A DNA stretch of 34,255 bases from a virus (IMGVR_UViG_638341087_000014:1-34255), one strand, 5' to 3'. Positions 2,000-7,348 are shown, counted from the first letter of the stretch. Program-made: numbers and translations. Notes: a model not told the origin generated them from the letters alone.

Positions 2000-2359
2000 A
2001 TGCGTATAGAGTTTGTTTTGCCTTACCCGCCAACGGTGAACACCTACTGGCGACGTCGTGGCAGTACATATTTTGTATCAAAAGCCGGTGAGCGTTATCG
2101 CCGTGATGTGGCGCTCATTGTTCGCCAGCAGCGACTGAGATTAAACCTGTCCGGAAGGCTGGCAATAAAAATTACTGCAGAGCCACCGGATAAGCGCCGC
2201 CGTGACCTGGACAATATTCTGAAAGCACCACTGGATGCGTTGACGCATGCGGGGTTGCTTATCGACGACGAGCAGTTTGATGAAATCAATATTGTGCGCG
2301 GTCAGGTCGTTCCTGGTGGTCGGTTGGGCGTGAAGATTTACAAAATTGAAAGTGAGTGA
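2000..2359 (+). CDS. rusA: Holliday junction resolvase RusA
   Basis: 119 aa; RusA hallmarks (PPTVNTYWRRRG, DKRRRDLDNILKAPLDALTHAGLLIDDEQ); AAAGAGG before the ATG; sits immediately upstream of the Q-like gene as in lambdoid nin regions. Confidence 0.9.
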   Translation: MRIEFVLPYPPTVNTYWRRRGSTYFVSKAGERYRRDVALIVRQQRLRLNLSGRLAIKITAEPPDKRRRDLDNILKAPLDALTHAGLLIDDEQFDEINIVRGQVVPGGRLGVKIYKIESE

Positions 2360-2367
2360 GCGTAAAT

Positions 2368-2922
2368 ATGATATACCCGGAAATTACAGGCAAAAGCGGT
2401 GAGCATTTACGCCTGAAAACGCTGGAAAGTGTCTGGCTCCAGGGGAAACTGCGTATGTGGGGGCGTTGGTCGTATATTGGCGGCGGTAAGACGGGAAATA
2501 TGTTCAACCAATTACTGACCTCTAAAAAGCTGACAAAAACGGCAATTAACGAGGCGCTCCGGAGGATGAAAAAAGCGGGTCTGGACAAACCTGAACTTGA
2601 GGCTTTTTTGCGGGATATGATCAACGGCAATCAAAAAAGCTGGCTGGCACATTGTACCGATTCAGAGGCGTTAATAATCGACAGGGTTATTGGTGAAGCC
2701 CTGGCCGGTTATCCCGGGCTGCTCAATGTCCTGAGTCAGCGTTATGTGGGGCGGGGGATGACTAAGCGCAAAATGGCTGAACTGCTGAATGATGCACACC
2801 CGGAATGGAGTTTAAGAACCTGTGAAAGACGCATTGAGCATTGGCTAAAGGTGGCAGAATTTATTTTGTACAAACCAATGGTTATGGCTTTTTGTATAGA
2901 GAAAAAAGTTATTGCTTTTTGA
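2368..2922 (+). CDS. Putative late-gene antiterminator (Q-like), assigned mainly by position
   Basis: About 184 aa, directly after rusA and directly before a strong intrinsic terminator, the lambdoid Q/pR'/tR' arrangement. I do not confidently recognise the family; GTG at 2356 is an alternative start. Confidence 0.5.
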   Translation: MIYPEITGKSGEHLRLKTLESVWLQGKLRMWGRWSYIGGGKTGNMFNQLLTSKKLTKTAINEALRRMKKAGLDKPELEAFLRDMINGNQKSWLAHCTDSEALIIDRVIGEALAGYPGLLNVLSQRYVGRGMTKRKMAELLNDAHPEWSLRTCERRIEHWLKVAEFILYKPMVMAFCIEKKVIAF

Positions 2923-2999: not shown

Positions 3000-3025
3000 A
3001 GCCCGCTTTTTGCGGGTTTTTTTTT
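3000..3025 (+). terminator. tR'-like intrinsic terminator downstream of the Q-like gene
   Basis: GCCCGC-TTTTT-GCGGG stem-loop followed by a 9-T run, about 80 bp after the Q-like stop. Confidence 0.6.
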
Positions 3026-3148
3026 ATGCCTGAAAAACGGTACAGGACGTTAAACGCGCTGATGGTTGCGAATACCGGTCTTTCAGCTTGCTGGCTTTTT
3101 CGACAAGAGCTATTGGTATGTCACGTTAACCAGAAAAGGAAAAAAGAC

Positions 3149-3346
3149 ATGCTAAAACAGCAGGATATGACCGAAACTGCCAGAGTGGTGTTTAATGAAT
3201 TAAGCGTCACCGAACCGGCGACCGTCGGGGAAATTGCGCAGAATACGTACCTTTCACGCGAACGCTGCCAGTTAATACTGACTCAGCTTGTTATGGCGGG
3301 TCTGGCAGATTATCAGTTCGGTTGTTACAGACGCCTTCCGCAGTGA
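3149..3346 (+). CDS. Small hypothetical protein (65 aa), possible helix-turn-helix
   Basis: ATG at 3149 preceded by AAAGGAAAAAAG; translation MLKQQDMTETARVVFNELSVTEPATVGEIAQNTYLSRERCQLILTQLVMAGLADYQFGCYRRLPQ; the stop lies inside a terminator hairpin. Confidence 0.4.
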   Translation: MLKQQDMTETARVVFNELSVTEPATVGEIAQNTYLSRERCQLILTQLVMAGLADYQFGCYRRLPQ

Positions 3347-3357
3347 AGGCTTTTTTA
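3333..3357 (+). terminator. Intrinsic terminator
   Basis: GCCTTC-CGCAGT-GAAGGC stem-loop followed by TTTTTTATTT. Confidence 0.5.
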
Positions 3358-3496
3358 TTTGTGGTAATGGGCGGCTGGTGGGTGTTAGCGGCACCTGCCA
3401 GCCATCTGCTCATGCGTTGGGGTCACAAGCAAACCTCAGGCCCATCTGCTTTGCGCAAAAGCGGTATGAGCCTATCAGAGAAGTGCTTATTGATCT

Positions 3497-4543
3497 ATGG
3501 CTAATACTGTAAAAATATCCAGTTGTGAGTTAATCAACGCTGATTGCCTGGAATTTATCCAGACTTTACCGGAAAACTCTGTCGATCTGATAGTCACAGA
3601 CCCGCCATACTTTAAAGTGAAGCCCGAGGGCTGGGATAACCAGTGGAAGGGCGACGATGATTACCTGAAATGGCTGGATCAGTGTCTGGCGCAATTCTGG
3701 CGGGTACTGAAACCTGCCGGAAGTCTCTACCTGTTCTGTGGTCATCGCCTGGCATCTGATACCGAAATCATGATGCGTGAGCGCTTTAATGTGCTGAACC
3801 ACATTATCTGGGCGAAGCCGTCCGGACGCTGGAACGGATGCAACAAGGAAAGCCTGCGGGCGTATTTCCCGGCAACAGAGCGCATTCTGTTTGCTGAACA
3901 TTATCAGGGGCCCTACCAGCCCAAAAATGACGGCTATGTGGCACAGGGGCGCAAGCTTAAACAGCACGTCATGGCCCCGCTGATTTCTTACTTTCGTGAT
4001 GCGCGTGAATCACTGGGAATAACGTCAAAACAGATAGCGGAAGCCACCGGAAAGAAAAATATGGCTTCGCACTGGTTTGGTGCCAGTCAGTGGCAGTTAC
4101 CGAACGAAGCTGATTACAGAAAACTGCAGGCATTGTTTGCGCGTGTTACAGCAGAAAAGCATCAGCGCGGGGAACTGGAAAAGCCACACCACCAGCTGGT
4201 CAGCGCATACAGTGAACTGAACCGTCAATACGCCAGCCTGCTGGAAGAGTACAAATCTTTGCGGCGTTATTTTTCCGTATCAGCTGCCGTTCCGTATACG
4301 GATGTCTGGACGCACAGGCCTGTGCAGTATTATCCGGGCAAACATCCCTGTGAAAAACCGGCGGATATGTTGCGGCAGATAATTGAGGCCAGCAGTCGCC
4401 CCGGTGATTTGGTTGCTGATTTTTTTATGGGGTCAGGTTCCACAATAAAGGCAGCATTGTCACTGGAGCGTCGGGCTATTGGTGTGGAACTGGATGAAGG
4501 GCGATTTAATCAGACTGTAACTGAAATAAAAAATATCTGTTAA
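3497..4543 (+). CDS. DNA methyltransferase, beta-class N6-adenine/N4-cytosine type (orphan, no restriction partner in window)
   Basis: 348 aa; N-terminal DPPY motif (LIVTDPPYF) and C-terminal FxGxG AdoMet motif (DFFMGSGST): motif IV before motif I. Confidence 0.85.
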   Translation: MANTVKISSCELINADCLEFIQTLPENSVDLIVTDPPYFKVKPEGWDNQWKGDDDYLKWLDQCLAQFWRVLKPAGSLYLFCGHRLASDTEIMMRERFNVLNHIIWAKPSGRWNGCNKESLRAYFPATERILFAEHYQGPYQPKNDGYVAQGRKLKQHVMAPLISYFRDARESLGITSKQIAEATGKKNMASHWFGASQWQLPNEADYRKLQALFARVTAEKHQRGELEKPHHQLVSAYSELNRQYASLLEEYKSLRRYFSVSAAVPYTDVWTHRPVQYYPGKHPCEKPADMLRQIIEASSRPGDLVADFFMGSGSTIKAALSLERRAIGVELDEGRFNQTVTEIKNIC

Positions 4544-4623
4544 TTGTGCATGGTGTTATTTCTGATAATTCCGGAATAATAAAAATATATATGTATATTT
4601 ACAATTGCTGACGAGCATTTTTA

Positions 4624-4651
4624 TTGAAAGCGTCCGGGTTATTCGTATTAT
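4624..4651 (+). promoter_or_regulatory. Candidate sigma70 promoter for the tRNA cluster
   Basis: TTGAAA (4624-4629), 16-bp spacer, TATTAT (4646-4651), about 30 bp upstream of the first tRNA. Confidence 0.3.
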
Positions 4652-4683
4652 TGTGCCGCGTCAGAGCAATGATGCAATGGACA

Positions 4684-4760
4684 GGCCCTTTAGCTCAGTT
4701 GGTCAGAGCGAGCGACTCATAATCGCCAGGTCGCTGGTTCAAGTCCAGCAAGGGCCACCA
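4684..4760 (+). tRNA. tRNA with CAU anticodon, ileX-like (tRNA-Ile2, lysidine type), often auto-annotated as tRNA-Met
   Basis: 77 nt cloverleaf folded by hand: acceptor GGCCCTT/AAGGGCC, T-arm GCTGG-TTCAAGT-CCAGC, anticodon loop CTCATAA, 3' CCA encoded. Confidence 0.8.
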
Positions 4761-4761
4761 G

Positions 4762-4838
4762 CCGCCACTAGCTCATCCGGATAGAGCATCAACCTTCTAA
4801 GTTGATGGTGCGAGGTTCGAGTCCTCGGTGGCGGGCCA
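4762..4838 (+). tRNA. tRNA-Arg (anticodon UCU)
   Basis: 77 nt: acceptor CCGCCAC/GTGGCGG, anticodon stem-loop TCAAC-CTTCTAA-GTTGA, T-arm CGAGG-TTCGAGT-CCTCG, CCA encoded. 5' end could shift by 1 nt. Confidence 0.8.
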
Positions 4839-4840
4839 GT

Positions 4841-4916
<76 letters not shown>

Positions 4917-4919
4917 TAT

Positions 4920-4994
<75 letters not shown>

Positions 4995-5246
4995 GAGCGA
5001 GATAGGTAGTTTTTTGGCACTGACACATTTTATGTAGGGCGTTTTTCCTGACTCCTTACCTCGCCCTGTACTGTAATGAGTGATATCGGTTGCAGTACCA
5101 GTGCTGTTTTTTACGCCACCGGAATGGTGCATTATTGGTAGAGATTTGCAATGTCTCTGGCAGGGGCCGGTGATGCATCATCCCGATGTTGTAAACATCG
5201 CTCAGATAACGTTGAAATCAATCAAACCCAGGAAATACATCTTTAA

Positions 5247-5270
5247 CCGCCGCACCAGGCGGTTTTTTTT
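5247..5270 (+). terminator. Intrinsic terminator downstream of the tRNA cluster
   Basis: CCGCC-GCACCA-GGCGG stem-loop followed by an 8-T run. Confidence 0.55.
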
Positions 5271-5646
5271 ATTCTTAATTCGAAGAAAAAGAAAACACGG
5301 ACATTGATAATGTCCGCGTGGCAATGCCATGTAAGTTAGCGATGAATATGGCGCAAAAAAAAGCGCGGCCGTCGGATTAACGCCGCGGGACAAAGTCCGT
5401 GAAGAATCATAAGCATCTGTCTCCTCCGGGAGACGAGTTGATATTACTAAGCTTTAAAAATGGTTTAAATCCTCAGATTAACCTTAATTTTCGGTAAGTC
5501 TTATTTCATTTCTTCGCGCCACGCCCGGCGCACATCAAAAAACCACAGAGCCTTTCAGGGGTGAGCTTACGGGATGGTCAGTGTGACTTTCTCTGTGGGC
5601 TGGTCACCCCCGGGCGCAGGCTCACCCACTAAAAGGAAAAGTCACG

Positions 5647-6072
5647 ATGTTTGGTATTTTCAAAAAGAAAACCCGCAAGGCCATTACCGAAGTGAAGAAG
5701 ATGGAGAACCGCGACGCAGTGGAGGCGACCGTCTGGGGCGCGTATTCCATTGCATATGCTGACGGCACCTGCGATGCGAAAGAAATCGCTGTGCTGGAGA
5801 AAACCATTGCAGCACTTCCTGCTTTTGCGCCGTTCTCGGGTGAGATTGCACAAATGAGTGCAAATATCCGCGCCCGTTATGAAGCGTCGCCGCGCTCTGC
5901 CAATGCTGAAGCCCTTCGCCAGCTGGCTGATGTTGCCGGTACTGATGATGCAGTTAATGTACTGTGCCTGTGTCTGGATATCGCAGACCAGGATGGCATT
6001 GGTCCGGATGAAGAAGCGCAGCTCAAGAAAATTGCTCAGGCGCTGCAGTTACCGCTGGAGCAGTACCTGTGA
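5647..6072 (+). CDS. TerB-like (tellurite-resistance TerB family) domain protein, 141 aa
   Basis: Pattern resembling TerB (two helical repeats with conserved AxxDG...EE/DEE, e.g. SIAYADGTCDAKEIAVLEK and LDIADQDGIGPDEEAQLKKIAQAL); AAAAGGAAAAG before ATG 5647. Family call from remembered pattern, not a search. Confidence 0.6.
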   Translation: MFGIFKKKTRKAITEVKKMENRDAVEATVWGAYSIAYADGTCDAKEIAVLEKTIAALPAFAPFSGEIAQMSANIRARYEASPRSANAEALRQLADVAGTDDAVNVLCLCLDIADQDGIGPDEEAQLKKIAQALQLPLEQYL

Positions 6073-6221
6073 AAAGTGCGCGCCTTGTGCTGGCTGCCAT
6101 CCTGCTGTTTCTGGTAGTGGCGGTGGATTTCACCGGACGGCTGATGTCGGTGCTGGCAGATGGTGTGCTGGTGGCGATGGCGCTGGTCGTGCTCCGGCCT
6201 TTACTGCGTAAATCTGAATAA
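6069..6221 (+). CDS. Candidate small membrane protein (50 aa, two hydrophobic segments), start overlapping the TerB-like stop (GTGA)
   Basis: Translation from GTG 6069: MKSARLVLAAILLFLVVAVDFTGRLMSVLADGVLVAMALVVLRPLLRKSE; below the 60-aa cut-off of the ORF track; ends just before a hairpin and terminator. Confidence 0.3.
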   Translation: MKSARLVLAAILLFLVVAVDFTGRLMSVLADGVLVAMALVVLRPLLRKSE

Positions 6222-6269
6222 CACCACACAAAAGGCATCTGCGGGTGCCTTTAACGGGGTGTTTTTTAC

Positions 6270-6296
6270 GGGCCGCTGGTGGCCCTTTTTTATTTA
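6270..6296 (+). terminator. Intrinsic terminator immediately upstream of the lysis genes
   Basis: GGGCC-GCTGGT-GGCCC stem-loop followed by TTTTTTTATTT; the holin ribosome-binding site follows directly. Confidence 0.6.
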
Positions 6297-6310
6297 CAGG
6301 AGAAAAAAGT

Positions 6311-6703
6311 ATGTCTGAACCCTTATCCGGTTCCGGCACGGCTGCGGCGCTCGGTGGGGCGACGGTGTACGGGCTGTTTACCGGAACGGATTTCGGGATT
6401 GTGTTTGGTGCGTTCGCCGGGGCGTTATTTGTGGCAACGATGCCGCAGGCGCTTTCAGCCTGGCGTGTGGCGGCGCATTTTCTGGTGTCGTTCATTATCG
6501 GCGTGCTGGGCGCAGAGGTTCTGGCATCCTGGCTGGTAAAGCATACAGAGTTTGACGGTGCACCTGTCGACGCATTGTGTGCAGTACTGGTGTCAGTGGT
6601 GTCGGTGAAGATTCTCTCGTTCATCCACCAGCAGGATATTGCATCGCTGGTGTCCGGCCTGTTCTCCCGCCTGCGGGGTGGAGGAGGCGGCAATGTTAAG
6701 TAA
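6311..6703 (+). CDS. Putative holin (three predicted TM segments)
   Basis: 130 aa, AGGAGA before ATG 6311, three hydrophobic helices, first gene of a cassette ending in an endolysin. Confidence 0.55.
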   Translation: MSEPLSGSGTAAALGGATVYGLFTGTDFGIVFGAFAGALFVATMPQALSAWRVAAHFLVSFIIGVLGAEVLASWLVKHTEFDGAPVDALCAVLVSVVSVKILSFIHQQDIASLVSGLFSRLRGGGGGNVK

Positions 6704-6968
6704 CCTTCCCGGATTACTGAATGTGGCGTTATGCACGGTTATCGTGCTGACGCTCTTTTTTTATCGTCGCCGTGATTCCAGGCATAAACCGCTGATGTCA
6801 TGGCTGGCCTGGTTGCTGATGCTGCTGTATGCCTTTGCGCCCCTCAGCTATCTGTGTGGTCGCCCGTTAGCAACGGGCTGGCTGGAAGTGTTTTTTAATC
6901 TGTTGTTCTGCGTGCTGGTAATACGCGCACGCGGGAACGTCGCAAGAATCTTTCCATTGTTGAGGTGA
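6693..6968 (+). CDS. Putative second holin / holin-associated membrane protein
   Basis: 91 aa, three hydrophobic segments, GGAGGAGG before ATG 6693, overlaps the previous gene by 11 nt, directly upstream of the endolysin. Confidence 0.45.
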   Translation: MLSNLPGLLNVALCTVIVLTLFFYRRRDSRHKPLMSWLAWLLMLLYAFAPLSYLCGRPLATGWLEVFFNLLFCVLVIRARGNVARIFPLLR

Positions 6969-6970
6969 AT

Positions 6971-7348
6971 ATGTCGGGTAAATTCAGATTTAGTCGTCGC
7001 AGTGAAAAAAATCTGGAGGGCGTTAAACCACAGCTGGTTGCTGTCGTTCGCCGTGCGCTGGAGCTGACGGAGGTTGATTTCGGTATTACGGAAGGGCTGC
7101 GCACGAAAGAACGCCAGAAACAGCTGGTCGCGGAAGGGAAAAGCCAGACCATGAACAGCCGCCACCTGACCGGTGATGCGGTGGATGTTGTTGCCTGGGT
7201 TGGCAGCCAGGTGTCATGGGACTGGCCTCTGTACGAGAAAATCGCGCAGGCATTTAAGCAGGCTGCCGCAGAGCTGGGAACCGCCATCGAATGGGGCGGG
7301 GACTGGAAAACACTGAAAGACGGGCCTCACTTTCAGTTGAAACGCTGA
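6971..7348 (+). CDS. Endolysin, peptidase M15 family (L-alanyl-D-glutamate peptidase type)
   Basis: 125 aa; zinc-peptidase motifs SRHLTGDAVD and GGDWKTLKDGPHFQ; GAGGTG before ATG 6971. Confidence 0.8.
   Translation: MSGKFRFSRRSEKNLEGVKPQLVAVVRRALELTEVDFGITEGLRTKERQKQLVAEGKSQTMNSRHLTGDAVDVVAWVGSQVSWDWPLYEKIAQAFKQAAAELGTAIEWGGDWKTLKDGPHFQLKR

Follow-up and report, generated by a model that had tools for sequence, protein, structure and literature searches.

A candidate antisense small RNA gene with tandem terminators in the late region of a lambdoid prophage

Prophage small RNAs (sRNAs) encoded at the "moron" site that is equivalent to the position of the Shiga toxin genes reprogramme the host, with AsxR targeting FnrS and affecting haem use, and AgvB targeting GcvB. 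They are located in lambdoid late regions, where terminators are numerous and are passed by Q-modified polymerase only. To our knowledge, the catalogue of moron-site prophage sRNAs stems almost entirely from EHEC and EPEC reference strains. In EHEC prophages, convergent sRNA pairs occupy the moron site 3′ of PR′ (Tree et al. 2014, PMC4104026), and the anti-sRNAs AsxR and AgvB combine conserved 3′ parts with variable 5′ parts (PMC4104026). In EPEC E2348/69, the antisense sRNAs PasA and PasC are located just upstream of the holin gene, and the neighbourhood of PasA often includes TerB, RusA, and DUF3927 genes (Pearl Mizrahi et al. 2021, PMC8550237; Zhu, Shabalina & Storz 2026, bioRxiv 10.64898/2026.05.13.724894).

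The window, i.e., the whole 34,255-nt stretch of viral DNA that was analysed, is a lambdoid prophage late region with the features listed in Table 1. Its interval between the tRNA genes and the lysis genes corresponds to the site that holds stx in Stx phages and "morons" in other lambdoid prophages. Within this interval, upstream of a TerB-family gene, the – strand probably encodes an unannotated sRNA of ca. 80 nt (5434→5355), antisense to the late operon and equipped with tandem terminators, as judged from the sequence and that of its relatives.

Table 1. Annotated and predicted features of the window (positions counted from its first nucleotide).
Feature	Position	Strand	Remarks
DUF968 and RusA genes	late region of window	+	gene order
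DUF1133/Q-like antiterminator gene	2356–2922	+	
DNA methylase gene	3497–4543	+	
four tRNA genes	4684–4994	+	
650-nt spacer	between tRNA genes and TerB		
predicted intrinsic terminator	5245–5270	+	stem AACCGCC/GGCGGTT and T8 (5263–5270); terminator scan
H1 with U-rich tract (5294→5283)	5283–5319	–	predicted distal, back-up Rho-independent terminator of leftward transcript
small hairpin UGGC-AUU-GCCA	5319–5329	–	just before H1
H2 (CGCGGC/GCCGCG, 5364–5387) with U8 (5362→5355)	5355–5387	–	predicted proximal Rho-independent terminator and 3′ end
small hairpin GGAC-UUU-GUCC	5388–5398	–	directly 5′ of terminator; conserved 3′ module
predicted single-stranded body AGAUGCUUAUGAUUCUUCAC	5399–5418	–	ca. 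20 nt; candidate seed region; fold of 5434→5355
32-codon ORF VKNHKHLSPPGDELILLSFKNGLNPQINLNFR	5399–5497	+	GTG start here, ATG in most relatives
H3 (GTCTCC/GGAGAC)	5419–5434	–	5′ stem-loop of predicted sRNA; G5434 is predicted +1
predicted sigma-70 promoter	5441–5469	–	–35 TTTAAA (5469→5464), 17-nt spacer, –10 TAATAT (5446→5441)
conserved stretch upstream of sRNA promoter	5470–5535	undefined	conservation profile, variant table
TerB–DUF3927 cargo (moron)	5540–6221	+	107-nt leader (5540–5646), TerB CDS and DUF3927
TerB-family CDS	5647–6072	+	Pfam match
DUF3927 gene	6069–6221	+	Pfam match
terminator	6270–6290	+	fits classical late-operon picture
two holin genes (Phage_holin_8, 3TM holin), then M15 endolysin gene	from 6311	+	

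The layout of this element resembles that of AsxR, AgvB, and STnc100 in that it occupies the moron site, preceded by Q/PR′ and the tRNA genes and followed by the lysis genes. This is the location (i.e., 3′ of Q/PR′, between moron or tRNA genes and the lysis cassette) by which the AsxR/AgvB class is recognised. As for AsxR and AgvB, the predicted RNA would be antisense to the late operon, its terminator would stand back to back with a + strand terminator, and a conserved 3′ module would be joined to a variable 5′ or body region; the promoter of its own and the convergent terminator that further mark this class are computational predictions here. However, AsxR and AgvB measure 51–60 nt versus a predicted ca. 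80 nt (or ca. 150 nt for a long form) for the present element, and share no sequence or structure homology with it. Specifically, neither AsxR (RF02703) nor AgvB (RF02702) nor STnc100 (RF02076) gave an Rfam match at E ≤ 1 to 10 in the window and related loci. The covariance model built here had no match in the AsxR/STnc100 locus of Sakai prophage Sp5, where Rfam, as a positive control, recovered STnc100 (208 bits, + strand) and AsxR (88 bits, – strand) with abutting terminators, a geometry that matches the present one. More generally, the Rfam search that the initial annotation had proposed (with the whole window at gathering thresholds, 4000–7000 and 5200–5700 at permissive thresholds, and nine related loci) yielded no family for the hairpin-bearing block, returning only tRNAs or chance-level scores. 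The best cis-regulatory matches on the + strand of 5200–5700 were isrD (17.5 bits; gathering threshold of 37) and THF-II (15 bits; gathering threshold of 41), both of which are chance-level terminator look-alikes.

A similar comparison holds for PasA, which is likewise antisense, 84 nt long, provided with an intrinsic terminator, and intergenic just before the holin gene. The lysis cassettes differ, with a class II holin and RrrD lysozyme there versus Phage_holin_8, a 3TM holin, and an M15 peptidase here. Homology to PasA or PasC was considered and rejected, as blastn (word size 7) found similarity in the DUF3927 gene only and the covariance model was without match in the pasA and pasC loci. 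A full-text literature search with five diagnostic 16–18-mers of the element found no paper. Because the layout is shared and homology is absent in Rfam, blastn, covariance model, and literature searches, the element would on paper be of the same kind as AsxR/AgvB and PasA, i.e., a candidate additional sRNA of this kind and not a homologue.

The three hairpins in question (further referred to as H1, H2, and H3) had initially been assigned to a 5′ untranslated leader of the TerB gene, and this assignment did not survive comparison with related loci. The hairpins are part of a block of ca. 250 nt (about 5285–5540) that recurs in the late regions of Escherichia lambdoid prophages, within the same surrounding gene order. 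In complete E. coli genomes, this block is followed by TerB–DUF3927 (e.g., SE11 and strain 504838), by unrelated cargo (TUM1881), or directly by the holin gene (CV839-06, M15, and the SerU-LTIIb phage), so that the same module also stands immediately upstream of holin genes in loci that lack TerB. Alignment of the junctions with those of cargo-free loci placed the insertion point of TerB–DUF3927 with its own leader at ca. 5540 and the resumption of the holin leader at ca. 6213–6229, and relatives carry either no cargo or a different cargo at this insertion point. Since all three hairpins are located left of the cargo junction, in a block that is independent of TerB, they do not constitute a TerB-specific leader.

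The TerB-proximal leader itself (5540–5646) contains a long imperfect hairpin (ca. 5544–5627) with interleaved complementary segments, i.e., CCACAGAG (5544–5551) with CTCTGTGG (5592–5599) and GGGTGAGC (5561–5568) with GCTCACCC (5620–5627), that could form alternative pairings or a pseudoknot. It is almost invariant in nine distinct TerB loci (and thereby too uniform for covariation), and no sigma-70-like promoter was seen in it. Two further hairpins (GGCATCTGCGGGTGCC, and a terminator GGGCCGCTGGTGGCCC followed by T6) were found at 6236–6310, immediately 5′ of the holin ribosome-binding site, and are conserved in cargo-free loci. As this terminator precedes the holin ribosome-binding site, the lysis genes lie behind a terminator and presumably need Q-modified polymerase.

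At the other end of the spacer, the tRNA gene at 4684–4760 was called Met by ARAGORN (anticodon CAT) and is annotated as tRNA-Ile in related E. coli prophages. We take it to resemble ileZ of Stx phages, in which case the Ile reading would follow lysidine modification. A promoter-like TTGAAA-16-TATTAT sequence is located just 5′ of this first tRNA gene (4624–4651). In the LT-IIb-converting phage SerU-LTIIb, the segment from tRNA over spacer to holin is duplicated (1122–2456 and 3028–4395) and the sRNA-like block is retained in the first copy only; the enterotoxin genes of this phage are located after the endolysin gene and not at the tRNA–holin site.

With regard to the hairpins as such, the palindrome CGGACATT-GAT-AATGTCCG (CGGACATTGATAATGTCCG) was found exactly where it had been described (5298–5316). 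The CGCGGC/GCCGCG stem and the GTCTCC-TCCG-GGAGAC hairpin exist as well, at slightly shifted positions, i.e., 5364–5369/5382–5387 (2 nt left of the 5366–5389 given initially) and 5419–5434 (1 nt from the 5418–5433 given initially), respectively. Folding of 5270–5650 agreed with a structured region, the native sequence being more stable than its shuffled counterparts on both strands (z = –4.74 for the + strand and –4.37 for the – strand; 0 of 100 shuffles as stable). It is the conservation in homologous loci that lends the hairpins their significance, with all three being conserved and showing compensatory changes in each.

The palindrome had been proposed to be the operator of a dimeric repressor, which would control TerB or the late genes. 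In this window, it indeed offers perfect 8-bp arms around a 3-bp spacer, and the symmetry extends to 5295–5319 with a single A·C mismatch on the + strand. Nevertheless, one palindrome of such size is expected by chance in 34 kb; perfect inverted repeats of this class (arms of at least 8 bp, loops of 3–10 nt, nested repeats counted) numbered 12 in the 34-kb window and 4.6 ± 2.5 in dinucleotide shuffles, and the palindrome alone is not beyond chance. Moreover, no DNA dyad is conserved among the 54 distinct homologues: the perfect palindrome is found in this window only (1 of 54), and the other 13 variants of H1 carry one or two mismatches that break the dyad, being A·C on the + strand and G·U on the – strand, and thereby keep the RNA pairing of the latter. 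The commonest alternatives (mainly CACGGACACTGATAATGCCCGTG and CACGAGCATCCAGGAATACTCGTG) preserve the hairpin through two-sided changes. The search for further copies returned none in the window at up to three mismatches, nor any array of half-sites, and this single-copy element lies between two terminators at ca. 350 nt from the TerB start, not at a promoter. An operator function is thus extremely improbable and is the least supported of the readings considered.

Read on the – strand, H1 has the shape of a terminator, with 11 pairs followed by the U-rich tail UUUCUUUUUC (TTTCTTTTTC), and was flagged as such by the terminator scan. Its pairs change on both sides (from A-U to G-C), and G·U pairs occur on the – strand only. 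Because its mismatches are A·C on the + strand and G·U on the – strand, the – strand hairpin is the more stable one in all 14 distinct variants (mean of –12.0 vs. –7.6 kcal/mol).

Homologues were collected by pattern scans of IMG/VR, metagenome contigs, and species-representative genomes and from E. coli loci, yielding 54 distinct stretches, and pairing was assessed for five – strand helices comprising 29 pairs in 30 sequences. All five helices were retained among the homologues and four of them show compensatory changes, six pairs changing on both sides, although these changes come from few recombining sequence types and represent few independent events. Read on the – strand, 98.1% of the cells were paired, versus 92.7% for the same columns on the + strand, and non-Watson-Crick cells were G·U in 50 cases on the – strand and in three on the + strand. 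None of 500 shuffles reached the observed pairing or covariation score, and sliding the partner columns lowered pairing to 34–51%. A 98-column alignment of the sRNA (27 sequences) gave the same covariation picture.

The earlier suggestion of a regulatory RNA structure therefore holds as far as the helices are concerned, since these are conserved with covariation, but the strand of the RNA appears to be the opposite one, and the structure is not a TerB leader. The – strand is indicated by the asymmetry in G·U pairs, the U-tracts, and the conserved promoter-like element. The H2 and H3 of this window contain Watson-Crick pairs only and fold equally well on both strands, so that the strand call rests on the relatives. 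An alternative is that the hairpins work within the late mRNA of the + strand, where they would form a leader with a regulatory or stabilising role for TerB and the lysis genes, possibly as sites of processing by RNase III or RNase E, as pause sites, or as attenuators. The late transcript must after all cross this region, the + strand fold has the z-score of –4.74 given above, and H2 and H3 of this window are equally stable on that strand. We nevertheless consider such a leader quite unlikely, given that none of the three hairpins is followed by a U-tract on the + strand, that H1 and H3 of relatives display A·C on the + strand where the – strand has G·U, that the block is independent of the downstream gene, and that no cis-regulatory family of Rfam was matched.

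The terminator-like elements further point to leftward transcription. GC-rich stem-loops followed by a U-tract are predicted for H1 and H2 on the – strand and for 5245–5264 with its U8 on the + strand. In this they resemble the lambdoid late-operon terminators (lambda tR′ etc.), with the difference that two of the three noted hairpins have their U-tracts on the opposite strand; H1 and H2 can therefore not serve the late operon as terminators and would bring leftward transcription to a stop. The + strand terminator, which is predicted to close the tRNA cluster and its trailer, has a conserved stem and a variable loop (17 distinct variants). It is situated ca. 25 nt left of the H1 terminator and faces it, and since the U-tracts of H1 and H2 are on the – strand and that of 5245–5270 on the + strand, the arrangement is one of convergent terminators.

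A candidate promoter for such leftward transcription was found directly upstream of H3. TTTAAA, a spacer of exactly 17 nt, and TAnnnT are present at this place in 54 of 54 distinct family members (137 loci), with TAGTAT, TAATAT, TATGAT, and TATACT as –10 hexamers, and this pattern is expected about 0.013 times per 120-mer of the same composition. In the window, 6 nt separate the –10 box from the first G of H3, and each body type examined has the same 6-nt gap followed by a hairpin, with the sequences of spacer, gap, hairpin, and body diverging between subtypes. The promoter itself is moderate, with four of six matches per hexamer, and fell below the threshold of the promoter scan. A + strand promoter within the block (TTAACC-17-TTATTT) was rejected, its match to the consensus being too poor by eye. 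Upstream of the – strand promoter, 5470–5535 is conserved beyond what a simple promoter needs and could hold a regulator site or an UP-like element. It includes an invariant dyad ATTAACCTTAAT at 5477–5488 (–43 to –54) and a GCGCC/GGCGC hairpin (5516–5531) with C-G to U-A compensation in three loci, the latter hairpin being absent from the second copy of the element in the IMG/VR prophage L031.

This promoter also bears on the possibility that the region is an insulator only, i.e., that convergent intrinsic terminators separate the tRNA unit from the cargo and lysis genes without there being an sRNA gene or a functional RNA. Three terminator-like elements do face each other within 150 nt, additional hairpins and a terminator precede the holin gene, and lambdoid late regions are known for terminators passed only by Q-modified polymerase. 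However, the invariant TTTAAA-17-TAnnnT with its 6-nt gap and 5′ hairpin is left unaccounted for by insulation, as are the conservation of the GGAC-UUU-GUCC module and the reuse of promoter and 3′ module, with other bodies, in a different mobile element. We therefore regard an insulator without sRNA gene as unlikely.

Conservation in part of the block might also stem from a protein of 32 residues encoded on the + strand (Table 1). In 48 of 54 distinct variants, the ORF remains open over its full length, and its pN/pS is 0.36, but its overlap with a constrained hairpin and promoter by itself lowers this ratio. Variable columns are about equally frequent at the three codon positions (13/11/15), without third-position bias, five variants are frameshifted and one has an ATT start, and the Shine-Dalgarno sequence is weak. 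L074, L127, and the second L031 copy, all of which keep promoter and terminator, lack the ORF. A contribution of such a protein is accordingly very unlikely. On the – strand, a 27-codon ORF starting at 5416 behind a good Shine-Dalgarno sequence was rejected because its ATG is lost in the commonest variant of the alignment.

Taking up the antisense sRNA again, transcription would start at ca. G5434 from the sigma-70-type promoter and proceed leftward through H3 as 5′ stem-loop, a body of ca. 20 nt, the GGAC-UUU-GUCC hairpin, and H2 with its U8, to give an RNA of ca. 80 nt. This succession of stem-loop, single strand, small hairpin, and terminator with U8 is a standard design of enterobacterial sRNAs. 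Read-through transcripts would stop at H1 and its U-rich tract (5319→5283), back to back with the + strand terminator at 5245–5270, yielding a long form of ca. 150 nt.

The individual parts differ in how they vary among relatives. In H3, U-A and C-G pairs switch, with U·G on the – strand only. The body varies between family subtypes. The four pairs of the GGAC-UUU-GUCC hairpin never vary in the aligned sequences (30 of 30 and 27 of 27), with one loop base differing in two relatives, and this hairpin is also retained in divergent body types. H2 forms a stem of 6–9 bp followed by U8 on the – strand; its pair 5369–5382 is C-G in 16 and U-A in 11 sequences, the next pair is seen as C-G, U-A, and U·G, and L031 carries a compensated GCGACC/GGTCGC variant. 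The small hairpin just before H1 (helix 4) reads GGAC-GUU-GUCC in the commonest variant, with two of its four pairs changing on both sides and 100% of its cells being paired. That same commonest variant has an interrupted U-tract behind H2 (CUACUUUUC) and U7 behind H1, i.e., the reverse of the window's variant. This reversal in U-tract quality makes the two terminators look complementary, and the broken H2 U-tract of the commonest variant means that the short 80-nt form may be specific to the window's variant.

As to function, we infer that the RNA may work in trans together with Hfq, as do AsxR, AgvB, and PasA at the corresponding position, or in cis against late transcripts that read through, or both. 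The convergent terminators may in addition insulate lysis genes and tRNA genes from each other in the lysogen.

The + strand sequence facing the element (5048–5270) was observed to contain a conserved CTGACT (5048–5053), 18 nt, and TGTAAT (5072–5077), followed by ca. 185 nt that include a long hairpin and run up to the terminator at 5245–5270 (fold z = –2.3). Rfam did not recognise it as STnc100. It is possibly the + strand partner RNA of a convergent pair, but a 3′ trailer of the tRNA operon is just as plausible.

The distribution of the element was examined with a covariance model (R1) trained on 27 sequences. It gave a single match in the window (5344–5438, – strand, 103 bits), and subtypes left out of the training scored 51–57 bits (E of about 1e-9 to 1e-11). 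At least part of the 5285–5540 block was matched in 497 of 5426 complete E. coli genomes, with coverage of at least 80% in 104, and carriers include commensal, ETEC, and APEC strains. Among species-representative genomes, a first pattern found nothing and a second found Escherichia ruysiae only, for which reason the family seems confined to Escherichia. A REP- or MITE-like repetitive element was rejected as explanation, since the window contains a single copy and the median number of places per genome is one.

Several observations concern copies outside the setting described so far, among them two of the subtypes left out of the training, one beside zinT and the other the second copy of L031. 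Between a tyrosine integrase gene and zinT, i.e., in a different mobile element, E. coli EC17GD31 and ten IMG/VR contigs carry TTTAAA-17-TATGAT with a 3′ module GGACUUUGUCC, a terminator, and a different body (…GGGAAAUUCAACAACUCUUGGAAAUUAU…), located at ca. 3001–3135 on the – strand in L127 and also seen in L131–L140. The L031 prophage has two diverged family copies (3448–3541 and 4457–4544) on either side of TerB–DUF3927; the second, with TATACT as –10 box, a new body, and the GCGACC/GGTCGC terminator stem, stands directly before the holin gene, where PasA sits in EPEC. Many other E. coli genomes contain partial matches to the terminator module only (5353–5398 of the window, ca. 90% identity). 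We tentatively propose, at somewhat less than even confidence, that these elements form a previously undescribed, modular, and Escherichia-restricted sRNA family, in which a fixed cassette of promoter, 5′ hairpin, and 3′ module holds an exchangeable middle seed part, the body types being at least four or five in number and found both in lambdoid late regions and beside the integrase next to zinT.

For annotation, the locus teaches that both strands should be checked before hairpins preceding cargo genes in phage late operons are called leaders or operators. If the RNA is expressed, it adds a widespread family that is absent from Rfam, and the combination of fixed promoter and terminator with a swappable body would offer a clean model for the evolution of new seeds by mobile elements. 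Finally, if the modular family is real, its prophages could rewire sRNA or mRNA networks of the host in the manner of AsxR and AgvB, and the RNA might also restrain leaky transcription of late or lysis genes as a cis-antisense brake.
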